From positions 1 through 36,348 of IMG/VR virus record IMGVR_UViG_3300009551_000036: a stretch of DNA of 36,348 bases; one strand, written 5' to 3'. The first letter of the stretch is position 1. Each line of letters begins with the position of its first letter. Of the stretch, positions 1 to 36,348 are shown piece after piece. The translations under genes and the position numbers were made by a program. This stretch comes from a virus. Below the pieces are notes generated by a model. The model had not been told where the DNA came from and did no database searches. It worked only from the letters and a program-made list of their open reading frames with translations.

Positions 1-123
1 TGTGTCCCGTTATAAATATTCGTTGCTGCTGCTGCTCCCACTAATATATATCCACTCGGGATTTTATTCAAAGTGTGTGGGAATCCTTGATTGGCATTGG
101 CTGCGTGAAATTGTGCTGAAACA
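1..123. repeat. Terminal direct repeat, left copy (identical to 36226..36348); most likely the assembly overlap of a circular or circularly permuted genome
   Basis: Read base by base: tgtgtcccgttataaatattcg...gtgctgaaaca occurs at both window ends (123/123). A minus-strand ORF is continuous across the implied junction. Confidence 0.9.
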
Positions 124-5703: not shown

Positions 5704-8196
5704 TTACCCCGCAATTTCCGTAAGTGTGATTGAGGATGAAGCGCGTTGATGCCTTCCATCGGCTGTATCAGCGATGCTCTGATTGATCCAGGTTCCAGGA
5801 GAAAACCAACTTGCTGCTTGAAGTTTATAAGTTAAGGCAGAACTATCCCCGGGAGTATCCAGATAATTAAACACATTAGAAAGAGGTGGAGTATCGGTAT
5901 TCGCAGGAAGTGCAATGGCTGTAGAAACCAGATTCGTATTGCCCGCGCTATTTTGACCGAGGCCAATCGGCATCCCGTTTCGGCAAAGTCTCATGCCCGC
6001 TCCGCCCACATTACTTGAAACAGCCGATAAGGAGACTTGTACATAAATCTTACTCCGAATGGAACGGGGGCTGATATTGACGGCTGATCCTGGAATATCC
6101 CACCACACATTGGTTCCAATGGCCGTATTTCCACCTGTGACCGTCGTATTCCACCAATTTTGAACGACTTGGATGACCGATCCGGCTGGCATCTGATTGA
6201 TTTGAAGGGGGGGCTGAACCGGCGAGAAAGTCTGAATATTGCTCATCTCGCCTTGTGGCCTAAAAAAATCAATGGCTGAGATTAAAACGGTCCCTCCCTG
6301 GACCACAAGACTCACACTATGAAACGTGAGACTGGCATTGGAGCCTGCCGGCATGATCACGGTATTCATGCTCGTTGCCCCTAAATTTGCCCCGGAATCA
6401 ATCGCAAAGGTCAGGCTTCCCCCGGCTCCAATCGAGGATCCAGTGACGACAGCCATGCGATCGCCATAATATTGGAAATTGAGAGTACAAGTGGTTGTCG
6501 CCCCGAAATACCCAATGCCCCCTGGCATCGTCGCTCCAACGGCTCTCACCCACGGGCCTTTGAATAAAAGGGCATCTCCAAACACGCGTTGAAAGATTCC
6601 GGGTGGGATGAACGTGGCATTCGTATTGTGAGGGATAAACGCTTGCAGAGTATCGTAGGCCGCCAGAATCCCAAAGGTGGGGGAGAGATCATGAGCCCGA
6701 CGGTACATATTGATCTTAGTCAGTCCAACATTGATGTGAGAGGATCCAGGAAAGAAGGCGAAATTATTCCAGCCAGGTCCTGCATCCATGAAGACCGTCT
6801 TTTTCAAAACGCCTGTAAAGCCAATATTATTGTGACTAAAGACCGGTAGTCCGTTCACAATCATGGTGCCTGAAAGAACGGCAAAACTCATCCCAGCCCA
6901 CTCAATCTCAGCGGCACTGAAATAGCCTTCGCATTGAACGAATCCTGCGGCTGAGGTAAAGACCATGGCGTTGGAGTTATCGAGTAAGGTCACCCCTGCC
7001 ACGTTATTGCCCCACACACAGTATTTCTGATACCCATCGATAAAGGGCATGGTGGATAAATCACTGCCCAAATAGGTATAGGAGAGAATATTCAAACTGG
7101 CATTAATGGCTAAGGATTGCCCTGCTTTGAAATAGGTATAAATCGCAGAGGACACTCCAAAGGGCAATTGAGGATAAACGGTCAAAGCATCCGTTGAAAT
7201 CGACTGAATGACGCCAATATAGGGAGTAGCCCCGGAATTGGACGCCGTAATGATGCCTTGGCCCGCAGTGAATTTGGAACCATCCCCTGTCGTGACGTTC
7301 AGGATACTCGTTGAAATATTCCCTTGGGCAATACTATTGATCGTACTGACGCCTAGGGTTGAGGTCGAATAGCCTGCGGTAATCGTCTTATAGATGACCG
7401 ACCTGCCGCCGAGAGAGGTCCCAAAGGTCGGCAACGGAAGGGTCGCATTGACTGAGGTTTTAGCCTGAGTCTTATTGTTATAGGTCAGGCCTGGGAATTG
7501 ATCGATCGAAAGAGTGGAGTTTTCCGAATAGACAACGACTCCAGCAATCGTAAAAACCCCGCCGCCTTGATTGGCGGTTAACCTAAAATCATGGATATTG
7601 TAAGTCTCGTTAGCCCCGGCATGGACGCTTGCTGCATACATGGGGGTTGTTTGCGGATTTTGAGTCGTATTGATGGATGCAGGTCCCACTGACATGTTGG
7701 ACCAATCCACACTAGTCGAATTCGAAACCCCATCCACAAAGACGGTTCCTGTGGCATTGCCTGCTGCGGCCGTATTGCCAATCATCATAAACATGCAGCG
7801 CGCAAAGACTCCGCCTACTCCAAAACCATCGTTGGGAGTCCTGATTTGAATAAAAGTCTGAAGTCCTTGCCTAATGAGCTGAAAATTCCCATAGACATAG
7901 CCTTGAGCCGAAGGAAAAGGCTCATGCCAAACGATGTTATAGGTGGGTTCGCCATTGATCCAAAAGGCTTTGTTTTGAACCAAAACGAGGTCCTTAATCC
8001 AAAGAGTTTTAGGACCAAATCTTGGGAAATCATCATTCCCATAGAGATTATTCAGCGGGTTATTCGAGAAAGTAGAACTAAACCCTGAATTCGTTGAGGG
8101 AGTGTCAGTGACATCAGAAAACACATCCTGCGTGAAAGCGGCGCTTCCTGCAGAGGTCGAGTCACTGGAGAACATCGTAATGGAGTTCTGACTCAT
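5704..8196 (-). CDS. Tail fibre / tailspike-like protein (830 aa)
   Basis: Very long ORF rich in Gly/Ser/Thr/Asn/Ala, with a beta-strand-like periodicity. RBS AAAGGA lies upstream of the ATG. Position is in the tail block. Confidence 0.5.
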   Translation of the reverse strand: MSQNSITMFSSDSTSAGSAAFTQDVFSDVTDTPSTNSGFSSTFSNNPLNNLYGNDDFPRFGPKTLWIKDLVLVQNKAFWINGEPTYNIVWHEPFPSAQGYVYGNFQLIRQGLQTFIQIRTPNDGFGVGGVFARCMFMMIGNTAAAGNATGTVFVDGVSNSTSVDWSNMSVGPASINTTQNPQTTPMYAASVHAGANETYNIHDFRLTANQGGGVFTIAGVVVYSENSTLSIDQFPGLTYNNKTQAKTSVNATLPLPTFGTSLGGRSVIYKTITAGYSTSTLGVSTINSIAQGNISTSILNVTTGDGSKFTAGQGIITASNSGATPYIGVIQSISTDALTVYPQLPFGVSSAIYTYFKAGQSLAINASLNILSYTYLGSDLSTMPFIDGYQKYCVWGNNVAGVTLLDNSNAMVFTSAAGFVQCEGYFSAAEIEWAGMSFAVLSGTMIVNGLPVFSHNNIGFTGVLKKTVFMDAGPGWNNFAFFPGSSHINVGLTKINMYRRAHDLSPTFGILAAYDTLQAFIPHNTNATFIPPGIFQRVFGDALLFKGPWVRAVGATMPGGIGYFGATTTCTLNFQYYGDRMAVVTGSSIGAGGSLTFAIDSGANLGATSMNTVIMPAGSNASLTFHSVSLVVQGGTVLISAIDFFRPQGEMSNIQTFSPVQPPLQINQMPAGSVIQVVQNWWNTTVTGGNTAIGTNVWWDIPGSAVNISPRSIRSKIYVQVSLSAVSSNVGGAGMRLCRNGMPIGLGQNSAGNTNLVSTAIALPANTDTPPLSNVFNYLDTPGDSSALTYKLQAASWFSPGTWINQSIADTADGRHQRASSSITLTEIAG

Positions 8197-9243: not shown

Positions 9244-11221
9244 TTATGGGCTAATGTAGTTTTGCAAACAAGCGGAGGCTGATGGCTTTTCCAAAAACAG
9301 ATTGGCAAAAAGCCTGAGACGCGCTTCGAATGCGTCACTTCCAATTTGGGCGATCAGGTAACTGCCCGTTTCGTCCGCCCATTCCATCTCGGCGAGTACG
9401 TATTTTTTCAGGTTCCCTTCTGTAATAAAGAAGAACCGTGTAGGGCAGGATTGATCCGCTAGAATCGGAGCACCTGAGAAGTTGAGGTAAACCTCATCCT
9501 TACTCGTGAATGTTCCGTCTCCAGTGACCTTTTCACCGATGTATCTGCGATCAGCGACCAATACAGTCTTGTTATCGCCTTGGCTTTTTATCCTAGGCTT
9601 CTTAGGCTTCTTTTTTCACCTAAGCTCAGCGTACATTTTCAGTCTTTTGAACTGTCGACCACTCTTGGGGGCATTGTTGGTTTCATCCCTCAGCCCCTAC
9701 GCGTTACGCAGCTAACGAAATTTCTTCGTCAGTTTGCTCGGGATTGGCATCGCAGCGTCCCCCGATTTTGGTCAATTTTGAATCGCCCATTTTGGTTAAG
9801 CGATTGTAATATCTCTCAGAATCGAAATCGCAATAAACGACAGAAATCTTCCCACCGCCTCGCCGTCTAGCATTATTCAATGCTTGTTGCATGGCGTTTA
9901 GATTCAGCTGTTGACCTGCTAAATCAATATTGTTTCCTTGGAAACTTGGAAAGAGGCTCCTGTCAATATTATAGATAGAACTGGTGCCGCCGTCCAAGCT
10001 CGTCAAGAGGCCCTGGATTTCGTTGCTCACTGTTCCAGACCGAATGACAAGATTGTTGGCTGCCACACTCACATTATTATCCAATGTCAGAGTAACCGTC
10101 GCTGTTCCAATTCCGCTCATAGCTGTAATCTGAACGTTATTGGCCAACACGTTGTTATTGGTGTCGACGATATCGATCTGAGTTCCGATATCGAGAAACT
10201 TCTCAGGGGCTTCAGCTGAAGCAATCCCTGCTTGGGTATCCCGATTCTGAATCGAAATGGAGTTCGTTCCGACAGCATTAGCAGAAACGGTCGCGAGACG
10301 GCCATTGCCGTTCCACCCCAACTGACGATTCACGTCCCATTTGGAATCGTTCACATTCTGTTACCCCTAGCCTTTCGGCTAGTGGAGGAACCGCTTCGGA
10401 TTCCTCTCAACGGCTTCTTTGGTTATACCGTTGTTCAGACTATCGCATCCCTTTCGGGCCCTCTCACTTAGTCGTTCAGGCTGCTTTCGCTTGCCCCTTG
10501 TCACCCGCTTCCGGGCTTCCAAGTCAATCAGAGTGGGTTTTAGAGGGACTGTAAGTACTTGAAATACTTGAGTTAATCCCTCAGTCATTTCAAATTCCAT
10601 CGCTGTAACAAATGCGCCCTTATCACCCTGGGAGCTTTTGATCAGCGGGCCTGTGAGACCGAACAAACGATCACAGTTTTGAAATGACTTCTGCGCTTCG
10701 GTCATGCAGCACGCAGATAATTATACTTCGCAGCAATAATGGCTTGCTGAGTGGTCTGTTGACCGATTTTGGGTAGGTTTCCGCCATCACTGGTAGCTCC
10801 GATACCCTGGTTACGTCTTACCTTCACAGGTCGAATGACTTGTTGACCGTTCCACTTCTCTTTTCCCTTTTCAGCTCCCCTATAGAGCGGTAGCAAGTTT
10901 GTTATCGTCCAGGTTTTTTATCCCAGACTTCTCACCATTTTATTTCAGTGAGTTCAGCGTACATTTTCAACCATTTCTGGTTGCCGGGGACTCTTGGGAG
11001 AGTTTATGTCTCCTACGCGTTACGGACGGATCAATCCTTGATCTCGCCCTCGGTATTCCCGTCTCAGGGTCCACCGATACACCCCAGTTTTTCATTTTCT
11101 ACTTACGTAGAAAAGCGACCATTTTTACATAATCGTCATTGAATTGGGAAACGATTGGACCGGCATAGTAGTTCTTCAGAATCGCCAGGGCGTTTGCCAC
11201 GTTGGCGAATTGATTAGCCAT
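9244..11221 (-). CDS. Major capsid protein (HK97-fold-like), interrupted. Proposed coding segments, complement: 11221..11132, 10893..10711, 10669..10576, 10353..9799, 9563..9244. Mature product about 410 aa.
   Basis: GGAGG RBS then ATG at 11221 (MANQFANVANALAILKNYYAGPIVSQFNDD). Later pieces read LPLYRGAEKGKEKWNGQQVIRPVKVRRNQGIGATSDGGNLPKIGQQTTQQAIIAAKYNYLR / LFGLTGPLIKSSQGDKGAFVTAMEFEMTEG / (L)NDSKWDVNRQLGWNGNGRLATV...SERYYNR / LLVADRRYIGEKV...LQNYISP*. Together these match the recalled pattern of this capsid family (..Y.YGRI.v.GP.I.....GAF..A.E.E......NRq..GdG.G.LA.v). The gene follows the scaffold gene. Confidence 0.8.
9564..9798 (-). ncRNA. Group I-like intron 3 in the capsid gene (235 nt, no ORF), paralogue of intron 1
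   Basis: P1: exon AAUCGCU | UAACCAAAAUG GGCGAUU gives 7 bp with U.G at the splice site. It ends ...CGAUAACAAGACUG | UAUUGG. It shares these blocks with intron 1: cctacgcgttacg (9696-9708 vs 11012-11024), tcagcgtacattttca (9626-9641 vs 10954-10969), actcttggg (9661-9669 vs 10990-10998), ttgttatcg and tttttatcc. Splicing gives ...YYNR-L-LVADRRY in frame. Confidence 0.7.
10354..10575 (-). ncRNA. Group I intron 2 in the capsid gene (222 nt, no genuine ORF)
   Basis: P1: exon GAGGGAU (10582-10576) pairs with GUCCCUC (10549-10543), with U.G at the splice site. R-like UGAACGACUAAG and S-like GCGAUAGUCUGAAC give P7 GACUA (10473-10469) / UAGUC (10442-10438). P4/P5 is CUUG-GAA-GCCCG-GAAG-CGGGU-GA-CAAG. 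GAAA tetraloops occur at CCC-GAAA-GGG, GC-GAAA-GC and CUAGCC-GAAA-GGCUAG (10382-10367). It ends ...GGUAACAGAAUG | UGAAC. Length is divisible by 3 and joins GGA U|UG AAC in frame. Confidence 0.75.
10894..11131 (-). ncRNA. Group I-like intron 1 in the capsid gene (about 238 nt, no ORF)
   Basis: 5' exon ...GACGAU | UAUGUAAAAAUG GUCG gives a 4-bp P1 with a U.G pair at the splice site. It ends ...CGAUAACAAACUUG (terminal G) | CUACCG. A UUUUCUAC-GUAA-GUAGAAAA tetraloop hairpin is present. P7 candidate is GCGUA (in GUAACGCGUAGG) with UACGC (in AUGUACGCUGA). An alternative 5' splice site lies 3 nt downstream (after UAU). Confidence 0.65.
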
Positions 11222-12611: not shown

Positions 12612-15155
12612 TCATCGTCTCCTTGGGGGTAATCCCACCGGTCGCGGCGGCGACCCTCGTCCCTGCTTAGGCGGTCCTACGGGCGCAGGGCCCGGAGCTG
12701 GTGCTCCAGCTCCAAACTGTGCTTTTTTGGCCGCCATTCGGTCGTTGGCACCTGGGGGTAATCCGGCAATGGCTTCTCCACCTGCTCCAATGGGCGGTGG
12801 AGGCATTGGGGGAAGCGGAGGCATCGGAGTATTGGAAGGGCCTGGAGGCATGAGCTGATTGAGCCTGTCTTCCATCTGAGCTTCAAAAAGACGCCTAATT
12901 TCCTCAGGCAGCATTCCCCATTTATCGGATTTTCTGAATCGATTGAGCTCTTGGCACCAAAGGATGTTGTTATCCTTCTTATCGATCTCGACGAATTCGC
13001 CTTTTTCCAATGCGTCCATGCCTCGTTTGATTTGAGCCATGTCGATGTGTTGGTCTTCAAAGATTTCCTGACTCTGTCCAAATTCCAAAGCATCCAAGAT
13101 CTTCATTGCAACCGATGGATCGGATTTGGGGTCACCGAGAAGTCCCAGACTCATGGTATTGACGATGTCCTGGCGCTTGAGAGTCTTTGAATCAGGGAGA
13201 GTGGATCCTCTCACGACTCTCACATCCGTATTGCCTCTCAAAAGCCTGCCATCGAGTTCCCGGATAATGTATTCGCCTGATTTGCCGGCAAGTTTCATTT
13301 TGCGGGGCATTTCGTAATTCTTCTCCACCTGTTTTAGGATCTGACGAAACACTTTGGACCAAGATCGCTCTAAGAGTTCAGTGATGACGCTTAATCGAGT
13401 CTGATCTTGCTCCTGGAGAAGCTGAGCGCCAATAGCGGGTATAGAAGCAGAAGGCAGAATGCCGCGAGAAACGTCGCCGATCCCAAAAATATAATCCATA
13501 ATTTTGTCGAGACGCTCTTCTTCAGTGTAAGCGTATTCTGGGATGGTGGGGACGGGTAAGGGTTCGATGTTTTGAGGGGCTGAGGGCACGACATTGTAAT
13601 AAAGCACTTCTCCTGATTCATCATTCATGGCCTCTTGGGCAAGGCCGGAACCTCTCGGGGCTTTGTATTTGCCCGCAAGCATTCGTCTTGTCCATTCAGC
13701 CCTTCGTCTTAAAGTTTCATTATATTGATCCTGAATCGGTCTTGCATGAGTGACCGGAGTCTCACTGTAATATTTGCCGCCTATGATGGTATCATCAAAT
13801 TTGGTGAGCGGGATTTCTCCGATAGGCAAATCTTTGCTATCTAAGAACACACCATTCGCTGCAGCAATCATCCGTCCTTGAGGAAATTTGGCTGAAGGCT
13901 TTTCATACTTAATCATTTCAATCGCAGAATTTTTCATCTGCTCAGTCAACCCCCCTTGCGAAGGGCCGCGAGAATTGAGCGAATTGACCCGCATTTCATA
14001 CTGAGCAGAAAGAAGCCACGCTGCTTCTTCTTTCACTAAATGTCCTCGTTCTGGATAATTGGCCTGAAAGTAATGAAGCGGTCTGACTTTAGCCAGCATC
14101 AAATATTGAGCATCATCATCGGTTCTAGCAAAAGGATCTGGAAAGACCGAAAACGCCGATTCAACTTCAATATCGACATCTCCTTGATAACCCAACGTCC
14201 CATCTTCCAGGATCATCGGATCGCCTAGTAATGGGTTCCATTTCACATGAATATAGGAATGCCCACATTGCTGCATCCACATGTAAAGAAACAGGCGCTT
14301 CTTATTGACTTCCAATCTTTCGATTTGAGTGTTTAAGACCTGCATCGAAAGTTTCGCTGCATCCTTATCCTCAACATCATCTGTTTCTGGAACAATGTCG
14401 TATTCGGGTGGATTCTGACAAAGACGCGCTAATCGATTTTGAACCGTAGGTAAGATCTTATTGGCATGAATGCGGTTTCGTCTCAAGTAGGCACTGGCGC
14501 GATTGATGGGCTGAAACTGGCGCGCAGTCGTATTATACATCAGGCCGTCGTAGCCTAGGCAGTTATGGACTAAGATCCCATTGGCGAAATATTCATGGAT
14601 TGTCTCAATGGTTAGGTCAAAGACATGTTGTGGACCTACACATAAGCGCTTCACAAAACAAACGTCTTCATTCTTTTCTGAGATGACATGCATCCCGACT
14701 TGCAGATTTTGGGCTTGGACCCAGCCATAAGCTTTGGTGTAAATCTTATGCTCATCGGTGCATTTCAGAATCGATCCATCTGAGAAATAATGGTCATAAC
14801 AGGTCTTTGTGCCATTATCCCAGACTCGAAGAACACGCCGATACCCATCGCGTGTTTTAACAAGATCTTTCGTTGTGAGTTTCTCGATTGCGGTATAGCC
14901 ATTGGCCGTCGCAATGACTGAATCGCCTGAGACGCAATAGGCGCAGTTCGTCATCCAGATTCCCTCATGTGCAATTCGATTCGCACTCGAGCGATTGGAT
15001 TCCAGCTCAGCTCTTAATTTCTGAGCCATGTCGATTTCTTCAGAGGATTGATCACTGACGCTTTTGGGCTTTTTATTGCGATCTGGGTCCGTCTGCGACG
15101 ACTGGGCCGCAAAGGGCTGATTCCCCCCAAATAATGATTTCAATAAACCCGCCAT
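12612..15155 (-). CDS. Portal protein precursor (847 aa) containing a mini-intein and a Pro-rich basic C-terminal tail
   Basis: Largest head-module ORF, downstream of the terminase pieces. RBS AAGGA. The mature protein would be about 722 aa after intein removal. The portal assignment rests on size and position. Confidence 0.65.
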   Translation of the reverse strand: MAGLLKSLFGGNQPFAAQSSQTDPDRNKKPKSVSDQSSEEIDMAQKLRAELESNRSSANRIAHEGIWMTNCAYCVSGDSVIATANGYTAIEKLTTKDLVKTRDGYRRVLRVWDNGTKTCYDHYFSDGSILKCTDEHKIYTKAYGWVQAQNLQVGMHVISEKNEDVCFVKRLCVGPQHVFDLTIETIHEYFANGILVHNCLGYDGLMYNTTARQFQPINRASAYLRRNRIHANKILPTVQNRLARLCQNPPEYDIVPETDDVEDKDAAKLSMQVLNTQIERLEVNKKRLFLYMWMQQCGHSYIHVKWNPLLGDPMILEDGTLGYQGDVDIEVESAFSVFPDPFARTDDDAQYLMLAKVRPLHYFQANYPERGHLVKEEAAWLLSAQYEMRVNSLNSRGPSQGGLTEQMKNSAIEMIKYEKPSAKFPQGRMIAAANGVFLDSKDLPIGEIPLTKFDDTIIGGKYYSETPVTHARPIQDQYNETLRRRAEWTRRMLAGKYKAPRGSGLAQEAMNDESGEVLYYNVVPSAPQNIEPLPVPTIPEYAYTEEERLDKIMDYIFGIGDVSRGILPSASIPAIGAQLLQEQDQTRLSVITELLERSWSKVFRQILKQVEKNYEMPRKMKLAGKSGEYIIRELDGRLLRGNTDVRVVRGSTLPDSKTLKRQDIVNTMSLGLLGDPKSDPSVAMKILDALEFGQSQEIFEDQHIDMAQIKRGMDALEKGEFVEIDKKDNNILWCQELNRFRKSDKWGMLPEEIRRLFEAQMEDRLNQLMPPGPSNTPMPPLPPMPPPPIGAGGEAIAGLPPGANDRMAAKKAQFGAGAPAPGPAPVGPPKQGRGSPPRPVGLPPRRR
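14562..14936 (-). mobile_element. Mini-intein (125 aa, residues 74-198 of the portal ORF, +1 Cys at residue 199), no endonuclease domain
   Basis: Block A CVSGDSVIATANG. Block B ILKCTDEHKIY (TxxH). Block F VFDLTIETIHEYFANG. Block G ILVHN followed by C. Codons checked on the sequence: tgc at 14936-14934, aac at 14564-14562, tgc at 14561-14559. Confidence 0.8.
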
Positions 15156-15173
15156 TCCTTGGCATCCTTTACG

Positions 15174-15419
15174 TTAAGGAATCCCAGCAAACTCTTGCAG
15201 AGGACCCAGATCTTCTTCCAAGGCCTGCTCATGTCTAACGCCCTGGTTTAATTCCCCGTCTGTCATGGTCTTATCGACATTCTTGGCAAACATATAATCG
15301 TGATAATTCTTCGACATGACTTTGTTAATCAACTTCTGAGTGGTCACGATAAACATGACTTGCTGAATAAAAGTATAAAGCACGAATCCCAGAATGATAA
15401 AGTCTTTAGCGTCTGCCAT
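15174..15419 (-). CDS. Small membrane-anchored hypothetical protein (81 aa)
   Basis: N-terminal hydrophobic helix FIILGFVLYTFIQQVMFIV. Sits in the operon series just upstream of the portal gene. Confidence 0.45.
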   Translation of the reverse strand: MADAKDFIILGFVLYTFIQQVMFIVTTQKLINKVMSKNYHDYMFAKNVDKTMTDGELNQGVRHEQALEEDLGPLQEFAGIP

Positions 15420-15738
15420 TGTTTTTACTCGGAACTTTGGCTGTGTTAGTCCCCTGAATCACCTTGGCTTCATCATCCCCATAAAGAATTTGACCCAAAG
15501 GACGCTCTAATTCCTCTTTTAAGCGCTGAGATTTGCCAAATTCAGTCACTTTGACGGATTGGAAGATAAAGTATTCGGCATGGGGACCTAATCCCCCTTT
15601 ATTGAAATGATCGATGATTTCCTTGGAAGTTTCGATCCATTCCTGTCCTTCAATCGTTGCGCGGTGAATCTTGGAATAAAATTGGTTGAGAGTTTCTTCA
15701 GTCTCATTCAGACCAAGCTTCACGCCCTGAGCTTCCAT
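15406..15738 (-). CDS. Hypothetical protein (about 110 aa from the internal ATG; the ORF is open from 15846)
   Basis: The ORF overlaps the 3' end of the terminase nuclease gene. The start was chosen at MEAQGVKL to minimise that overlap. Confidence 0.4.
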   Translation of the reverse strand: MEAQGVKLGLNETEETLNQFYSKIHRATIEGQEWIETSKEIIDHFNKGGLGPHAEYFIFQSVKVTEFGKSQRLKEELERPLGQILYGDDEAKVIQGTNTAKVPSKNNGRR

Positions 15739-16516
15739 TTTGTGAGCTTTCGGTGAGGTGTTGGATATACCAGGACTCGTATTTGGGGTCGTTTGGACTG
15801 TGGGGTTGCTCAAGCTTCTTTTTCTCCCTTGTTGGATAATAAACAAGTTCCTCTAAACTGGCCAATGCGTCAAGGATATCATCGTGAGTTCCGCGGGGGA
15901 ACGCGTCATATTCATCCTCGAATTCAACCATTCCAGGGTAACAGAATAAATGTCCCCACTCGAATCTGGGGACTAGGCCTAAGATTCGAGAGGATTTAGA
16001 GATATTGTTTCTCCTAATGCCTTTTACGGGAAGCATTTTGTCGCGCTTGATCATTTCTTCTGAAATGAGATATAAAAGCGCCTCTTGATAACCCACGATT
16101 TCAATCCCGATGGCATCGAGTTCAAACTGCTCTTGAAGATCAAAGGCTTTATTAACAATCTGTGTCGGAGTCAGGCGATAGCGTGAAGCGAGTCTTAAAT
16201 ACCAATTCCGATCCTGATCAGCATAGACGACGGCGATGCCGGTATAGTCACTGTGCTTATGCTGGCCAATGGCTGGATCAATGAAAGCAAACTTAGTGCA
16301 TCCTTCTGGGATTTGAGTGGTGTATCTCAGCCATTCTTTTCTAAACTTCTTTTCCTCATCGGGGATGATGACGTTTAAATATTGGTTGGCAAAGAGATAA
16401 GACCCCATGGTCCGTCTGGCTTGATCTAAGAACTCTTGGGTCAGTCTTTCAGGAAAGAAAAGAGATCCATCGTCATTGATGGCCTTTTTATAGACGACGC
16501 TCCAGCGGTCGTTCAA
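15704..16516 (-). CDS. terL: Large terminase, C-terminal nuclease-domain fragment (270 aa, TTG start)
   Basis: RWSVVYKKAINDDGSLFFPERL..LFANQYLNVIIPDEE..FAFIDPAIG..YTGIAVVY..GIEIVGYQ..HDDILDALASL are RNase-H-like nuclease motifs of TerL. GGGAG lies 7 nt upstream of a TTG that overlaps the TGA of the upstream ORF. Confidence 0.85.
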   Translation of the reverse strand: MNDRWSVVYKKAINDDGSLFFPERLTQEFLDQARRTMGSYLFANQYLNVIIPDEEKKFRKEWLRYTTQIPEGCTKFAFIDPAIGQHKHSDYTGIAVVYADQDRNWYLRLASRYRLTPTQIVNKAFDLQEQFELDAIGIEIVGYQEALLYLISEEMIKRDKMLPVKGIRRNNISKSSRILGLVPRFEWGHLFCYPGMVEFEDEYDAFPRGTHDDILDALASLEELVYYPTREKKKLEQPHSPNDPKYESWYIQHLTESSQNGSSGREAWSE

Positions 16517-16881
16517 TACCCAGCTCCCTTATCGATTCTCATAGCAATAATCGATGTGGTGCCTAAGGAGGAAATATAAAACGAAGCAGGTCCTTCGATT
16601 TCAAAAATCTCAGGAATCATGGTCGCTCCGACGGGATGTAAGGGCCAACCTTTTCCGGAGAGAGCTGCTAGCGTTGCCCCTGCCATCGTGGTTCCAAAGA
16701 AAAAGTTCAGGTTACTACTCCCAATAGCAGGAGGGAGGATCTCACAAGAGGAACCGAGGAGTGCTTTCATCGCCCAGGTCTGTTGCCCTAAAAGAGGCTG
16801 ACAGAAAACAGCCAGAGTAGGGCCGACTGGAACGATGACTTGAGTGATGCCTAGAGTAAAGATGCTATCTGCGAGATTCAT
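16513..16881 (-). CDS. Hypothetical protein (122 aa), paralogue of 17349..17705
   Basis: Aligns with the 118-aa ORF: LG.T.VIVP.G.TLAVF.QP..GQ.......G..CEIL.PA........F.GTTMAG.TLAALSG.G. Lies between the two terL fragments. Confidence 0.6.
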   Translation of the reverse strand: MNLADSIFTLGITQVIVPVGPTLAVFCQPLLGQQTWAMKALLGSSCEILPPAIGSSNLNFFFGTTMAGATLAALSGKGWPLHPVGATMIPEIFEIEGPASFYISSLGTTSIIAMRIDKGAGY

Positions 16882-17346
16882 TTAGTTTCCTAATCGAAAG
16901 ATTGAAAAATAAATTTGTGACGCGTTTCCAGACTGCAAAGACGGGCTCCCAGCATTACACGAACCTTTGATTACTACATTATCCCCATCCGCTAATTGAA
17001 GAATATCACCGACAGGACAAAATTGGGCTGTCATACTGGTTGCAAGTCGATTGATTGTTTGACTTGTCGCTACTCCATTCACATAGATTGAATTCTGAAC
17101 GACATTATTGACCGCCGCAGCATTGAAGGAATAGACCAGCTGGGAATGGAGATGATACTTTCCTCCTAAGCCGGATCCCACAACCCAGACGCCATTACTC
17201 ATGCTCATTCCGCCGACGGTGTCAAAGCTCTTATTGATCCAAACAATCGGCGCGTCACCACCACCGATTGAGCTATTTGAATCAGTAAATCGACCTGCAA
17301 CAAGTGGATTATAAAAAGGCACTGTGGAGAAAATCTCTAATGCCAT
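16882..17346 (-). CDS. C1q/TNF-like jelly-roll domain protein (154 aa)
   Basis: IVWINKSFDTVGG..NGVWVV..GGKYHLHSQLVYS...IYVNGV......LQLADGDNVVIKG.....IYFSIFRLG matches the recalled C1q-domain pattern (F..v..N.G....G.F....G.Y.f.....v.L..NG....l.L..GD.V.....FsGfLl). Confidence 0.5.
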   Translation of the reverse strand: MALEIFSTVPFYNPLVAGRFTDSNSSIGGGDAPIVWINKSFDTVGGMSMSNGVWVVGSGLGGKYHLHSQLVYSFNAAAVNNVVQNSIYVNGVATSQTINRLATSMTAQFCPVGDILQLADGDNVVIKGSCNAGSPSLQSGNASQIYFSIFRLGN

Positions 17347-17348
17347 GT

Positions 17349-17705
17349 CTATTGACCCTCAGCCTTTCCAAAGATCGCATGCAGGACCGATGTAGCCCCT
17401 GTGGATGAGAGGTAGTAATACGCAGGTCCGCTCAGGGATAAGGTCTCATTGGTGGATAGGCAATAGCCTGAACCAGACAAGGCAGCTAAGGTTCCCCCTG
17501 CCATAGTCGTTCCTAAGAATATGTTAAATGCGACCTGAGTAAAAGCGGGACCCAGGATTTCACAAGTCCCACCTGAGAACATTTTGAGCAGAGTGCTCAC
17601 CTGTCCTGCTTGAGGTTGCATGAAGACAGCAAGTGTGGCTCCGATTGGAACAATGACGCGCGTTGCCCCTAAACTCCACACCGAATCAAATGAGGTAGTC
17701 GCCAT
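17349..17705 (-). CDS. Hypothetical protein (118 aa), paralogue of 16513..16881
   Basis: See the paralogue alignment above. Same strand, and the pair flanks the C1q-like gene. Confidence 0.6.
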   Translation of the reverse strand: MATTSFDSVWSLGATRVIVPIGATLAVFMQPQAGQVSTLLKMFSGGTCEILGPAFTQVAFNIFLGTTMAGGTLAALSGSGYCLSTNETLSLSGPAYYYLSSTGATSVLHAIFGKAEGQ

Positions 17706-17755
17706 GATAGAAGTTTAGGTGTCTCCACCCGGTTAATCAAGGTTTGTTCGTGAAC

Positions 17756-17926
17756 TTACTCCTGACCATCATGCTTGATATCCATCAAGTATTCTCGATC
17801 CAAGGTTTGGATCATATGGCGAATGGTATCGGCAACCTCAGGCTTTCCAGAAGCCTCCATCTCTTTCATAAACTCATGCAGGTTCCAAACTAAGTCTAGA
17901 ATCCTCTTATGGGTAACTGACATCAT
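17756..17926 (-). CDS. Small hypothetical protein (56 aa), below the ORF-track cutoff
   Basis: RBS AAGGAG (17938-17933), then ATGATG. Hand translation: MMSVTHKRILDLVWNLHEFMKEMEASGKPEVADTIRHMIQTLDREYLMDIKHDGQE*. Confidence 0.5.
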   Translation of the reverse strand: MMSVTHKRILDLVWNLHEFMKEMEASGKPEVADTIRHMIQTLDREYLMDIKHDGQE

Positions 17927-17946
17927 AATGAACTCCTTACCTTAGT

Positions 17947-17976
17947 ATTATACTCTAATATAACGCATTAAGTCAA
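17947..17976 (-). promoter_or_regulatory. Sigma70-type promoter inside the terL-splitting region
   Basis: Minus-strand TTGACT (17976-17971), 18-nt spacer, TATAAT (17952-17947), followed by the RBS and ATG of the 56-aa ORF. Confidence 0.5.
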
Positions 17977-17987
17977 GCCAGGGTGTG

Positions 17988-18215
17988 TCAGGGATGATCC
18001 TTTTCTAGATCATCGACCTTCTCGCGTTCAGCTAAGGCGATATTGAGATGATGGATCAGCATGGCGACATCTTGGCTGAAGTACTTGCTTTGGAGCAGGC
18101 TCAGGAAATACTTCACTTGCTCATCGGGGCCTGTAAAGAGATCACGAAGCAAAGCCTTAGCGTTTGCTCGGGTGGTTGTCATCCAGTCATGCCGTCGTTG
18201 GGGATTGATCATCAA
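17988..18215 (-). CDS. Hypothetical small protein (75 aa)
   Basis: ORF with a 4-nt overlap onto the upstream 69-aa ORF. Confidence 0.45.
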   Translation of the reverse strand: MMINPQRRHDWMTTTRANAKALLRDLFTGPDEQVKYFLSLLQSKYFSQDVAMLIHHLNIALAEREKVDDLEKDHP

Positions 18216-18421
18216 TGCCTCGTGAATTTATCCCAGTCAGAAATGGCTTCAGTGACATTAATCACCCCGAGCTTAATCATAGAGGCTTTGTCGCAGAGCT
18301 TATCGATATTCGTTTCGTTTAAGACTTCAGCTTTAGCCGCTAAGTCAGTCTCAGCCGTGATCTTGGCAGTCCCATAGATTTCAAGCTTATAGACCACATG
18401 CCATTTCTTTTTCATTGTCAC
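18212..18421 (-). CDS. Hypothetical small protein (69 aa)
   Basis: ORF beginning ATGACAATGAAAAAG. Its start codon is 17 nt from the divergent plus-strand ORF. Confidence 0.45.
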   Translation of the reverse strand: MTMKKKWHVVYKLEIYGTAKITAETDLAAKAEVLNETNIDKLCDKASMIKLGVINVTEAISDWDKFTRH

Positions 18422-18438
18422 TATTGTACAGGAAAGCC

Positions 18439-18714
18439 ATGGCTTTTAGATTTTTGCAGCATTTACCGGCTTATTTTGATGACAGCATTGCCCGTTTTGA
18501 CATCACCGTGGAAAATACCGAAGAATTGCTTCGCTATCCCAAAATTGATGGATGGAAAAGAAATCATCAGGATTTCTATCGTTTCGTGCAGTCAAAGTAT
18601 GGCGATAATTTGCACCTTATGGCCGAGCATAACAATGGCAAGAGTTGGTATGTCTTAGGAACCGCTTTTACCGAGGACCTAGGTTTGCCTCAATGGGAAC
18701 CTAAGAAGGATTAA
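18439..18714 (+). CDS. Hypothetical protein (91 aa from ATG 18439)
   Basis: AGGAAA lies upstream of ATGGCTTTT. Plus-strand ORF embedded in a minus-strand operon, between the terL halves. Confidence 0.45.
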   Translation: MAFRFLQHLPAYFDDSIARFDITVENTEELLRYPKIDGWKRNHQDFYRFVQSKYGDNLHLMAEHNNGKSWYVLGTAFTEDLGLPQWEPKKD

Positions 18715-18717
18715 GAA

Positions 18718-18993
18718 ATGCTGAGACTAAAACAGAAGCTAGCCCATGATTATTGCGTAGATCTTGTCCCTGAAGTTTTACCAAAAGATAATAAAGATTG
18801 GTATGAGGCAACTCTAGCATGCGACGTTTTAAGGGCTCAATATGCTGCAATTTATTTGGCTGGATTCGAAAAAGCACGAGAGTTGGTCTGGGAGACTTTA
18901 GGAGAGGAAATGTATTCCGTCCAACCCAAGATACAACATCTTATCCTGAATGTGGGGGAGGGAGAAGTGGATCTATCAGTCCCTGAGGCTTAA
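18718..18993 (+). CDS. Hypothetical protein (91 aa); its 3' end overlaps the 3' end of the terL ATPase fragment by 53 nt (convergent)
   Basis: RBS AAGGA lies 6 nt upstream of the ATG, which is 3 nt after the previous stop. Confidence 0.45.
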   Translation: MLRLKQKLAHDYCVDLVPEVLPKDNKDWYEATLACDVLRAQYAAIYLAGFEKARELVWETLGEEMYSVQPKIQHLILNVGEGEVDLSVPEA

Positions 18994-19672
18994 TCTCATT
19001 CTCTAAAATATATCCCAGACAATCGTCTGCGGCATAACGCGTCCCGATAACGACCATCACTCCATGGGGCTCTAGAATCGACGTATTAAGCTTATAGTGA
19101 TTCACGACCTTCTGTCTTTGCTCAGGAGTCTGGGAGTTTCGTTCAGAGTTTAAATCATCCATAATAATGCAATCATAGTGCTGTCCAGTCTTGCCGGCCC
19201 CGACACCTGAAGCCGTCACACTCGATTCCTTCAAGATCTTTCGCCTCTGAGCAATCGTAATACTTCCCTCAGCCCATTGGTTGGATCTAAAGGACCCAAA
19301 GAGTTGGGTCACTCGGGGAAGCTCAAGCTTGCCCCTGATCTCGCGGATGAAGTTCTTAGAATTCTCATAGATCTCTGAATCAATCAGGATCCTCAGATTC
19401 GGATTATTCATCAATGACCAAATGGAATACCCGACTACTCCTATCGATGATTTAAACGTGCCCCGAGGGACGCAGATGAGCTTGCGTTTGGTTGGAGCTT
19501 CTAAGGCTTCGATGATTTCGCCATGCGTATATTTAGTCAGATCGGAATATTCCAATAGATCTTTGCAGGTGAGATAGAGGCTATTCTTATAACGCGTTTT
19601 GATGCGTTCAGTTAAAGCGATGCGTTGGATTTGAGGGTCATACTTACCGAGTTGTTTGGAATAAGTGGCCAT
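18941..19672 (-). CDS. terL: Large terminase, N-terminal ATPase-domain fragment (243 aa)
   Basis: Walker A-like VPRGTFKSS. Walker [11 protein letters not shown]. Coupling motif [11 protein letters not shown]. It ends ...[26 protein letters not shown], exactly where homologues continue into the ..W.v...A...dG..lfPe.. segment found at the start of 15704..16516. Confidence 0.85.
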
Positions 19673-28805: not shown

Positions 28806-29093
28806 ATGGATAAACCCTATGTAATAGTTAGGACTTTTTCGGCAGGAGTATTTGCGGGATTTCTTGAAAAACGAGATGGAAAAGAGGTCACGCTCACTAA
28901 TGCTAGACGGCTATGGTACTGGAAGGGTGCTGCAAGTCTCAGTCAATTGGCAATGGAAGGCGTGAAATATCCGAAAGAATGCAAATTCCCCTGCCCAGTC
29001 GATTCCGTCGTTTTGACGGAGGCCATTGAAATTTTAAATGTAACCAACGAAGCCAAAGCATCGATCGAAAGTGTACCGATATGGAAAGCATAA
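28806..29093 (+). CDS. Conserved small phage protein of unknown function (95 aa)
   Basis: VIVRTFSAGVFAGFLEKRDGKEVTLTNARRLWYWKGAASLSQLAMEG...VLTEAIEILNVTNEA...W resembles a widespread phage DUF (pattern ..tL.nAR.iwyW.ga..L..lA..G). Recollection, not verified. Confidence 0.55.
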   Translation: MDKPYVIVRTFSAGVFAGFLEKRDGKEVTLTNARRLWYWKGAASLSQLAMEGVKYPKECKFPCPVDSVVLTEAIEILNVTNEAKASIESVPIWKA

Positions 29094-29395
29094 TGGTTTC
29101 GTTTAGCGGCTGCGGTTACGGCTTCGGCGACGGTTCCGGCTATGACTCCTGTGACGGCTCAGGTGACGGCTCCGGCTACGGCTACGGCTACGGATCAGGC
29201 TACGGCTCCGGCGACGGCTACGGCGACGGCTACGGCGACGGCTACGGCTACGGCGAAGGCGACGGCTACGGCTACGGCTACGGCGAAGGCGACGGCTATG
29301 GCTCCGGCAACGGCTATGGAGACGGCTATGGAGACGGCTATGGCTATGGCAACGGCTATGGAGACGGCTATGGAGACGGCTACGGATCAGGCTAA
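29093..29395 (+). CDS. Gly-Tyr-Asp repeat protein (100 aa)
   Basis: TAATG coupling to the upstream gene. MVSFSGCGYGFGDGSGYDSCDGSGDGSGYGYGYGSGYGSGDGYGDGYGDGYGYGEGDGYGYGYGEGDGYGSGNGYGDGYGDGYGYGNGYGDGYGDGYGSG*. This is the only one of the three open frames with a start context. Confidence 0.55.
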   Translation: MVSFSGCGYGFGDGSGYDSCDGSGDGSGYGYGYGSGYGSGDGYGDGYGDGYGYGEGDGYGYGYGEGDGYGSGNGYGDGYGDGYGYGNGYGDGYGDGYGSG

Positions 29396-29515
29396 GACAT
29401 ATTTGAGGGGAATATGGAAAGCAGAATCGACTCCAGCGAAGGTTACGGCTCTGGCTATGGCGATGGATCAGGATACGGCTACGGATCAGGCTACGGCTCC
29501 GGCGACGGCAAGGGC
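29100..29515. repeat. Imperfect tandem hexanucleotide array (GGCTAC/GGCGAC/GGCTAT units) in two blocks
   Basis: Visible runs ggctacggctacggc..., gacggctatggagacggctatgg.... All three forward frames and one reverse frame stay open. Confidence 0.85.
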
Positions 29516-29518
29516 TAA
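29414..29518 (+). CDS. Second, short Gly-Tyr-Ser/Asp repeat peptide (34 aa)
   Basis: RBS GAGGGG then ATG. MESRIDSSEGYGSGYGDGSGYGYGSGYGSGDGKG*. Confidence 0.4.
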   Translation: MESRIDSSEGYGSGYGDGSGYGYGSGYGSGDGKG

Positions 29519-29529
29519 AGGGGATTCTT

Positions 29530-30543
29530 ATGGGGGAGAAAATCATTGCGCACTGCTCGAATATCACCGCGTTCGATGTTGGAAAAACTGCTTGGAATAA
29601 TCCAGAAATCTGGCAACAATACCCCGGGTCGGGATGGATATCGTATCTCGATCAATATGCGAAGCGAGAGGGCTTCCAGCTGCTATCAGGCCTGGAAGCC
29701 TTAGTTGAGATTAAGAATAAGCGCATCGATCCTTCCGACGTCTATATTGTTCAAGAGGAAGAAAATCAGATCGGCCTCAGGCTCTACATGGCTCAAGCGA
29801 AGAGGGCAGTTCTTTACTGTCTCGAATCCCCTCTTTTTGTCCCAATCTTCTATGACATACTCAATTTGGTTCGGGGAGAATTTCCGTTTCAGATGCTGTT
29901 TGGTGAATTAGGCAATATCCGGGCTTACTTTCCAAGTTATGACGAGGAGAAGGATCTTCAGGCACCTATGCCCTGGGAAGAACGAAAGGGTTTGTCAGTG
30001 ATGGTGAGCTCCAATAAGCATTATAGGAGCATGCTTCAGAACAACGATCGCCTGGGATTATCTGAGACATGGGATTATGCCTTAAGTCATCAGCTCCATG
30101 ATTTGAGATTTCAGATGATCCGGCATTTTAGGGATGAGAAAAAGGTCATGGATCTTTACGGCAGGGGATGGGCTGATGCGCCTGAAATCCCTGCAGGACA
30201 AAAGATTGAGGTTTTGAGGAATTATAAATACTGCTTTTGCATCGAGAATGTCCAAATGCCAGGTTATGTGACTGAAAAGATCATCGATGCTTTAGTCGCC
30301 GGCTGCGTTCCGATTTATGTGGGAGCGCCTGATATTAATACCTATTTGGATGATCGAGTGATGGTTCCCATTGATCCGCTTCTGAACGACCGTTTAGATC
30401 CTAATCAAGATCCTCTCTCCTTTTGTCAGGATCTGGATAGAAGCCAAAAATATTTAGGCGAGTGCGGAGGATTTAGGAAATTCAGCTATCAATCCTTTGC
30501 GCGTACCGTGCTAGATTCTGTGATCAAAGTGATGCAATCATAG
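29530..30543 (+). CDS. GT10-family fucosyltransferase (alpha-1,3/4-FucT-like, 337 aa)
   Basis: NYKYCFCIENVQMPGYVTEKIIDALVAGCVPIYVGAP closely matches the GT10 signature (H. pylori FucT: CFENTQGYGYVTEKIIDAYFSHTIPIYWG). Confidence 0.8.
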   Translation: MGEKIIAHCSNITAFDVGKTAWNNPEIWQQYPGSGWISYLDQYAKREGFQLLSGLEALVEIKNKRIDPSDVYIVQEEENQIGLRLYMAQAKRAVLYCLESPLFVPIFYDILNLVRGEFPFQMLFGELGNIRAYFPSYDEEKDLQAPMPWEERKGLSVMVSSNKHYRSMLQNNDRLGLSETWDYALSHQLHDLRFQMIRHFRDEKKVMDLYGRGWADAPEIPAGQKIEVLRNYKYCFCIENVQMPGYVTEKIIDALVAGCVPIYVGAPDINTYLDDRVMVPIDPLLNDRLDPNQDPLSFCQDLDRSQKYLGECGGFRKFSYQSFARTVLDSVIKVMQS

Positions 30544-36155: not shown

Positions 36156-36348
36156 TCAAAAAACCAAAACACTGGCTGATGTCGCCACAGTCGATTGCAG
36201 ATAAATGGTATTGACGGTATTCGCCTGTGTCCCGTTATAAATATTCGTTGCTGCTGCTGCTCCCACTAATATATATCCACTCGGGATTTTATTCAAAGTG
36301 TGTGGGAATCCTTGATTGGCATTGGCTGCGTGAAATTGTGCTGAAACA
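36156..36348 (-). CDS. 3' part of the junction-spanning 112-codon ORF (same gene as 1..269)
   Basis: Same frame after removing the 123-nt overlap (36225 is divisible by 3). TGA at 36158-36156 lies just upstream of the RBS (GAGGAGGG) and ATG of the 210-aa gene. Confidence 0.7.
   Translation of the reverse strand, partial: VSAQFHAANANQGFPHTLNKIPSGYILVGAAAATNIYNGTQANTVNTIYLQSTVATSASVLVF
36226..36348. repeat. Terminal direct repeat, right copy (identical to 1..123)
   Basis: Exact 123-nt identity with the window start. Unit length is 36225 bp. Confidence 0.9.

Follow-up and report, generated by a model that had tools for sequence, protein, structure and literature searches.

The viral sequence IMGVR_UViG_3300009551_000036 of the IMG/VR collection was analyzed over its full length of 36,348 nucleotides (hereafter, the window), with a focus on a minus-strand gene of the head and packaging region whose product very probably contains a mini-intein of 125 amino acids (aa). 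The product of this open reading frame (ORF), 847 aa long, was matched by the Pfam family P22_portal (57.6 bits vs. a gathering score of 26.1, E = 1.1e-15, residues 226-698), more weakly by SU10_portal, and by PHROG 156, "portal protein" (E = 8.5e-33). The genes around it follow the order C-terminal part of the large terminase (TerL), two small ORFs, portal, an ORF of 159 aa, a scaffold-like gene and the major head protein gene, with an SU10 adaptor further downstream, and those adjoining the portal are arranged identically in an intein-free relative (L001). Both the profile match and the place within a packaging/head gene module, by which portals of the P22/SU10 type were recognized, were thus found for the 847-aa ORF, and on these grounds the host protein of the insert is assigned to that type, as a first-pass annotation placing an intein within a portal protein had proposed. 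Homology searches recovered 569 portals, of which the best 120 were 611-729 aa long, except for the query and one other protein. No relative of the 36-kb phage that could inform host assignment was found among GTDB genomes.

The additional length of the precursor corresponded to a clean insertion. In an alignment of 14 portals, 12 sequences (57-89% identity) were gapped precisely from C74 to N198, and the same gap was present in 64 of the sequences of a 66-portal alignment, in which the columns of the insert were filled in two cases. Homologues running through this segment without a gap, which the first-pass annotation had named as evidence against an intein, were therefore not what was observed. 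Residues flanking the insertion (S57-N70, A72 and Y73 on one side, L200-G204 on the other) were invariant in the 14 portals, and intein-free portals encode the joined extein sequence directly (...EGIWMTNCAY followed by CLGYDGLMYN...). None of the 14 IMG/VR relatives carried an intein. The closest comparison was provided by the intein-free relative P0002/L001, 87% identical over the portal exteins, whose DNA aligned to the window in two blocks (16515..14935 and 14563..12739) that define a precise insertion of 375 bp in the window; the 4-nt overlap between the blocks is due to a Cys codon being present at both junctions. Regarding the first residue of the C-extein (position +1), the 64 intein-free portals had Leu in 31 cases and Cys in 15, with Ile, Val, Ala or Thr in the remainder. 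Cys was common at this position in the closest relatives, and the site was therefore ready to receive the intein without any change in the extein.

The 20 residues around the splice junction showed a mean conservation of 0.83, compared to 0.69 overall, which ranked 92 among 653 windows of the 66 portal rows; the junction is therefore located in a conserved stretch, as is typical of inteins, though not in the single most conserved block. These counts were based on the portal rows of a combined alignment of portals and intein fragments, in which the fragments themselves were misplaced (8-21% identity) and were not used. The same junctions bear on whether a chimeric contig could have placed an unrelated intein in the portal gene. 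The assembly is of metagenome type and the protein was found on only two contigs, as might be expected of such an artefact; yet the insertion is exactly in frame, its ends coincide with catalytic residues, the Cys codon is found at both junctions, and in contigs from other samples a diverged, independent intein is inserted at exactly this site. Moreover, the composition of intein and extein was close (GC content of 0.443 vs. 0.485, and of 0.456 vs. 0.473 at third codon positions). The probability of an assembly artefact was therefore considered practically negligible.

All the sequence elements associated with splicing were identified within the insert (Table 1). Its translation begins with CVSGDSVI at residue 74 and ends with ...ILVHN at residue 198 (codon 14562..14564), followed by Cys199. 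The flanking sequences are ...EGIWMTNCAY and CLGYDGLMYNTT. In precursor numbering, block F reads VFD180LTIETIH187EYF (D107 and H114 of the intein) and the final residues of block G are H197-N198. When 43 mini-inteins were aligned, C1, T60, H63 and N125 were invariant and H124 was conserved in more than 90% of the sequences. The coordinates (14562-14936), length (125 aa), residue numbering (C74, N198) and flanks given in the first-pass annotation were all exact upon translation of the ORF, and the four splicing blocks it had recognized were present, with their key residues in invariant or nearly invariant columns of the 43-intein alignment. Inteins of class 3 are characterized by a WCT triplet in which a Cys at position 4 of block F acts as the first nucleophile. 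Position 4 of block F in the portal insert is Asp (VFD) and Cys1 is present, which assigns it to class 1 and rules out class 3. A naturally split intein of the gp41-1 type was likewise ruled out, given that the precursor is encoded in a single uninterrupted ORF (12612..15155).

Table 1. Position of the features described in the text. Coordinates refer to the window, except for the last three rows, which refer to other IMG/VR loci.
Feature	Position	Strand	Basis or remarks
Portal protein precursor ORF, 847 aa including the intein	12612..15155	-	ORF list; Pfam P22_portal and SU10_portal; PHROG 156; homologues
Class 1 mini-intein (very probable), 125 aa, precursor residues 74-198	14562..14936	-	Gap in homologues; 375-bp insertion; HINT profiles; AF2 and Foldseek
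Block A nucleophile Cys1 (C74), codon TGC	14934..14936	-	Invariant column, 43-intein alignment
Block B T-D-E-H, intein T60...H63 (precursor 133-136)	14748..14759	-	T and H invariant, 43-intein alignment
Block F VFDLTIETIHEYF, intein Asp107 and His114	14586..14624	-	Aligned with block F of Mtu RecA, Spl DnaX and gp41-1
Block G NGILVHN (His124-Asn125) and C-extein +1 Cys (C199)	14559..14582	-	43-intein alignment; TIGR01443
N-extein, precursor residues 1-73, with C-terminal conserved motif SANRIAHEGIWMTNCAY	14937..15155	-	14-portal alignment
C-extein, residues 199-847 and stop codon (portal core, Pro-rich C-terminal tail)	12612..14561	-	
Capsid insert IVS1	11131..10894	-	No ORF
Capsid insert IVS3	about 10573..10352	-	No ORF; canonical group I R/S boxes GAACGACTAAG / GATAGTCTGAAC
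Capsid insert IVS4	about 9798..9564	-	No ORF; homologous to IVS1
IVS1/IVS4 family, example copy	L130:543-1058		
IVS1/IVS4 family, example copy	L064:4201-4431		
IVS1/IVS4 family, example copy	L145:904-1134		

Profile searches of the kind suggested by the first-pass annotation as a check returned matches to several families. Residues 81-198 of the precursor were matched by Pfam PT-HINT above its gathering score (E = 1.7e-10). The NCBIfam model intein_Cterm (TIGR01443) scored 22-24 bits, above its cut-off of 15.6, and intein_Nterm (TIGR01445) exceeded its cut-off of 24.5 when a segment of 126 aa was scanned alone (27.4 bits) and remained below it in the full protein (21.9 bits). Among PDB sequences, phmmer retrieved the Spl DnaX mini-intein (4e-9), gp41-1 (9e-8), the Mtu RecA mini-intein (1e-7) and approximately 40 further intein chains, in alignments that extended over the whole length of the insert, from its first residues to the terminal HN.

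A structural model of the intein was obtained with AlphaFold (AF2) using the 43-sequence alignment, after a single-sequence run of low quality (predicted local distance difference test, pLDDT, of 36) had been discarded. The resulting model had a pLDDT of 97.8 and a predicted template modelling score of 0.90. The best Foldseek match in PDB was gp41-1 (template modelling (TM) scores of 0.91 and 0.90, root mean square deviation of 1.4-1.5 Å over 126 columns), followed by the RecA, DnaB, NrdJ-1, DnaX and DnaE mini-inteins. In total, 67 PDB matches were found at E ≤ 1e-3, and TM scores to more than 30 solved intein structures ranged from 0.78 to 0.91. According to this model, the portal intein is predicted to adopt the horseshoe fold of the HINT superfamily.

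A second allele was found in the portal cluster P0004 (830 aa), represented by contigs from other samples, in which an intein of 130 aa is inserted at the identical site; it was the sole other intein-bearing portal allele detected. The two inteins were 40% identical, compared to 72.5% for the exteins, and that of P0004 retains Cys1, the TxxH motif, the block F Asp, the terminal HN and Cys+1. The conservation of the catalytic residues in two inteins so diverged would argue for selection on splicing, and constitutes the best indirect evidence available in this regard. A search for further alleles with a degenerate junction pattern (HNC[L/F]GYDG) yielded no matches in IMG/VR and six chance matches in JGI metagenomes. 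Similarly, among GenBank phages no related intein was found in portals of the P22/SU10-type family, and the intein part of the query matched terminase and ribonucleotide-reductase genes instead.

Several observations weigh against an active intein. The best Pfam match of the insert, PT-HINT, is a family of cleaving rather than splicing domains, while Intein_splicing remained below its gathering score (31.1 vs. 35.8 bits). No chain was detected in PDB with a profile of 14 portals, even at E ≤ 10, and the insertion site was thus not placed on a solved portal. In addition, the genome may be defective, as a frame-breaking insert of 47 nt in the capsid gene (see below) might indicate, in which case the intein may no longer be under selection.

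The PT-HINT match, together with the occurrence of a bacterial-intein-like (BIL) domain (2lwy) among the PDB matches, would be consistent with an autoprocessing domain of the BIL or pretoxin type, which would cleave without ligation to yield a truncated portal and an N-terminal peptide of 73 aa. Domains of these types usually have no +1 nucleophile and cleave rather than splice, whereas both the +1 Cys and the terminal HN are present in the portal precursor. To our knowledge, BIL and PT-HINT domains are found in variable regions of secreted or toxin proteins and not in conserved phage structural genes, while the insert lies inside an invariant motif of a phage portal. Moreover, the top structural and sequence neighbors were true inteins (gp41-1, DnaX, RecA and DnaB), and the flanks are contiguous and invariant in intein-free orthologues, which implies that both are needed in one chain. 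A cleaving domain was therefore regarded as extremely unlikely.

The subthreshold Intein_splicing score would also fit a degenerate HINT insertion that no longer splices and persists as an additional, permanent domain of the mature portal, as would the lack of an endonuclease, and hence of homing pressure, and the presence of other gene interruptions in the genome, one of them unexplained. This explanation was considered very unlikely, given that the catalytic residues are all intact and in invariant columns, that they are also kept in the second allele in spite of its divergence, and that the insertion disrupts a motif showing no variation among the aligned portals, where a permanent 14-kDa insert would be hard to tolerate. 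Taken together, the profile and sequence matches, the precise insertion relative to homologues, the catalytic residues and the predicted fold point with high confidence to residues 74-198 being a canonical mini-intein of class 1 and of the cis-splicing type, which has a HINT fold and lacks a homing-endonuclease domain.

Based on these residues and the modeled fold, we infer that the portal precursor is spliced. The reaction would start at Cys74 with an N-S acyl shift, aided by the Thr and His of block B, followed by trans-thioesterification to Cys199, cyclization of Asn198 with the assistance of the penultimate His197 and of the block F Asp and His, and a final S-N shift. The product would be a portal of 722 aa, in which ...EGIWMTNCAY is joined directly to CLGYDGLMYN.... 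The unspliced precursor would presumably be unable to build a functional dodecameric portal. It is plausible that splicing efficiency gates head assembly, as the first-pass annotation had put forward, because the insert breaks up a motif shared without change by the aligned portals, and the ring requires the packing of twelve subunits.

A Cys at position -3 of the extein forms, together with the catalytic Cys1, a CxxC motif across the N-terminal splice junction (C71-A-Y-C74, 14934..14945, minus strand). Cys was found at position -3 in only 5 of 66 portals, most of which have Ile. A disulfide "redox trap" has reportedly been engineered in the Ssp DnaE intein, and a native Cys-3 is said to occur in the Pab MoaA intein. 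By analogy, the portal intein could act as a conditional switch, delaying splicing and hence portal and head assembly until a reducing or assembly-competent state is reached, a reading that was considered very unlikely. In a more modest version, the intein may simply be a fast splicer similar to gp41-1, 125 aa long and contiguous by nature, and as such a useful minimal scaffold for cis-splicing.

The portion between H63 of block B and D107 of block F comprises only about 40 residues, and no homing-endonuclease domain was found between these blocks on the basis of their spacing, of the end-to-end alignment with mini-inteins and of Pfam searches. End-to-end alignments with the portal intein were obtained for 51 natural domains, 123-142 aa long, from the top 150 representatives. 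Since gp41-1 also has 125 residues (88 + 37), the portal intein lies at the lower size limit of the HINT fold; this size is not unique, as contiguous natural mini-inteins of 123-125 aa exist. These alignments and the gp41-1 structure bear out the view of the first-pass annotation that the insert leaves no room for an endonuclease.

Searches with Pfam and PHROGs yielded no HNH, LAGLIDADG or GIY-YIG matches in 60 ORFs of the window representing the coding regions of the genome, which fits the earlier description of the intein as immobile or helper-dependent. Judging from these searches, the portal intein has no homing endonuclease, either cis-encoded or free-standing in its neighborhood. Positions 1..123 of the window are an exact direct repeat of positions 36226..36348 (123 bp), which indicates that the window probably corresponds to a whole genome, assembled as a circle, of 36,225 bp; given this probable completeness, the absence of endonucleases would therefore hold genome-wide. 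Without an endonuclease, the intein cannot home by itself, and its persistence would probably be explained by vertical descent, with rare spread by recombination between co-infecting relatives.

In order to place the intein among its relatives, 1.84 billion representatives were scanned exhaustively with HMMER, which superseded a word-indexed search with the intein alone (three candidates and one weak match). A total of 4191 matches were obtained at E ≤ 1e-3, 310 of them at E ≤ 1e-10. The closest full-length relatives (34-45% identity) were mostly located in phage large terminases, and structural neighbors from BFVD agreed with this result. The portal intein appears to have been recruited from a pool of mini-inteins found in circulation mostly among the large-terminase genes of phages. 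Shared ancestry of the two portal inteins was considered and could not be shown: the window intein obtained about equal bit scores against the P0004 intein (93.7) and the TerL intein P0142 (93.2), and P0142 was in turn the best match of the P0004 intein. Consequently, a single ancient invasion and two independent invasions of the portal site could not be distinguished.

The intein is one of several intervening elements in the head and packaging genes of this phage. Introns and inteins have been reported at high density in some crAss-like phages (PMC7886860). The gene for the major head protein (PHROG 14242; 9244..11221, minus strand) consists of five collinear exons separated by four inserts, and is uninterrupted (411 aa) in L001 and L004. 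RNA folds of the three longer inserts, IVS1, IVS3 and IVS4 (222-238 nt), surpassed those of shuffled controls (z = -5.0, -2.9 and -4.0, respectively). With Rfam, no family was detected in the window at gathering thresholds, nor in the region of the four capsid inserts (9540..11160) at E ≤ 10. A 16-mer of the IVS1/IVS4 family (TGAAAATGTACGCTGA) was found in at least 120 IMG/VR loci (L026-L145), where nhmmer detected at least 151 copies of the family, up to four per locus among the matches listed; at the copies of 12 of these IMG/VR loci, Rfam yielded nothing at its gathering threshold. The boxes GTAACGCGTAG and ATGTACGCTGA covary within the family (GCATA/TATGC, GAGCGTA/TACGCC), and the copies in L049 and L105 have the canonical group I R/S elements GACTA/TAGTC in their place. 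Due to this covariation and replacement, the IVS1/IVS4 family was read as group I introns; it looks like a subclass with a variant P7 that is missed by RF00028, and IVS1, IVS3 and IVS4 are probably compact, ORF-less group I introns that escape the Rfam model. The family copy in L064 abuts a distant major-capsid homologue. The L145 contig, with three copies, also contains a canonical Rfam group I intron (6322-6530; RF00028, 63.5 bits) and belongs to another intron-rich phage.

The fourth capsid insert comprises 47 nt (10665..10711, minus strand), between ...KYNYLR and FGLTG..., and its length is insufficient for a group I intron. The resulting frameshift leads to a TGA two codons downstream. 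The insert is preceded by a CGT codon, which forms part of the 5' arm of a hairpin of 7 bp, and CGT recurs in frame 44 nt later. This arrangement bears a loose likeness to the translational bypass of T4 gene 60, from which it differs in that the stop does not adjoin the take-off codon and in that the fold is poorly distinguished from controls (z of only -1.4). The insert could also stem from misassembly or reflect a defective genome.

Two ORFs separated by 2.4 kb (18941..19672 and 15704..16516, both on the minus strand) code for the large terminase. The N-terminal part (243 aa, with Walker-type motifs) corresponds to positions 294-465 of the PHROG 38 profile and the C-terminal part (270 aa, nuclease) to positions 466-713, so that the gene is divided precisely where the ATPase and nuclease domains of the profile meet. 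The intervening region (16517..18940) includes three ORFs (16513..17705), two of them Gly-rich paralogues, as well as several small ORFs and some on the opposite strand; none of the ORFs between the terminase parts had a family match. In L001, a stretch homologous to the N-terminal part is also found, about 2 kb from the ORF of the C-terminal part (269 aa). Elsewhere in the window, a long tandem array of 12/18-nt repeats (GGCTACGGCGAC...) extends over 29059..29541, overlapping the plus-strand ORFs 29081..29395 and 29142..29600, and would encode a low-complexity protein rich in Gly, Tyr and Asp/Ser.

With respect to annotation, the "long" portal of 847 aa can be described as a portal of 722 aa plus an intein of 125 aa, and the P22/SU10-type portal is added to the phage genes invaded by inteins. 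The second allele and the TerL relatives support the circulation of endonuclease-free mini-inteins among phage packaging and structural genes. If fast splicing were true, the portal intein might be of interest to protein engineers as a natural, contiguous, minimal cis intein whose closest structure is that of the widely used gp41-1. Mini-inteins, and their abundance in phage packaging genes, are well known, and current understanding is unchanged by the portal intein: the finding is fairly ordinary, given previous knowledge of inteins in the packaging and portal genes of phages and of mini-inteins of such a size.

Among the systems known, the gp41-1 intein, from a cyanophage-like metagenomic sequence (PDB 6qaz/6riz), was the best structural match, and shares with the portal intein its length of 125 residues, its association with phages, class 1 chemistry, Cys1, the TxxH motif and the terminal HN. 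However, gp41-1 is naturally split over two genes and splices in trans, whereas the portal intein is contiguous. Moreover, gp41-1 has Ser instead of Cys at position +1, interrupts a DnaB-like helicase rather than a portal, and is only 25% identical in sequence. The best PDB sequence matches, the mini-inteins Spl DnaX and Mtu RecA (ΔI), correspond to the portal intein block by block, including VFDL...H...VHN, yet they are of cellular origin and longer (137-139 aa), and the RecA mini-intein was crystallized in a form derived by engineered deletion from a full-length intein. The closest relatives in sequence were the mini-inteins of phage large terminases, namely P0142 (PHROG TerL), P0159 and P0210 (Terminase_3), and P0211 and P0223 (Terminase_6). 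These have in common with the portal intein a size of 123-142 aa, the C-terminus ...FANGILVHNC and the lack of an endonuclease, and differ from it in host gene and insertion site.

Inteins within portal proteins have been documented in mycobacteriophages of cluster C1 ("PORT" inteins; Kelley et al. 2016, PMC5050341), and those of actinobacteriophages fall into five separate groups, which indicates repeated invasion of portals (bioRxiv 10.1101/2025.01.02.630785). The likeness to the case analyzed here lies in the presence of an intein inside a phage portal gene. The actinobacteriophage inteins are found in other portal families, in phages of Actinobacteria, and those included in the phylogeny of the latter survey carry LAGLIDADG endonuclease domains (bioRxiv 10.1101/2025.01.02.630785), whereas a mini-intein of 125 aa is inserted here in a P22/SU10-type portal of a 36-kb phage. 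The novelty lies only in the combination of a P22/SU10-type portal in an uncultured phage of 36 kb, the insertion site, and a contiguous intein of 125 aa whose nearest counterpart among solved structures is gp41-1.

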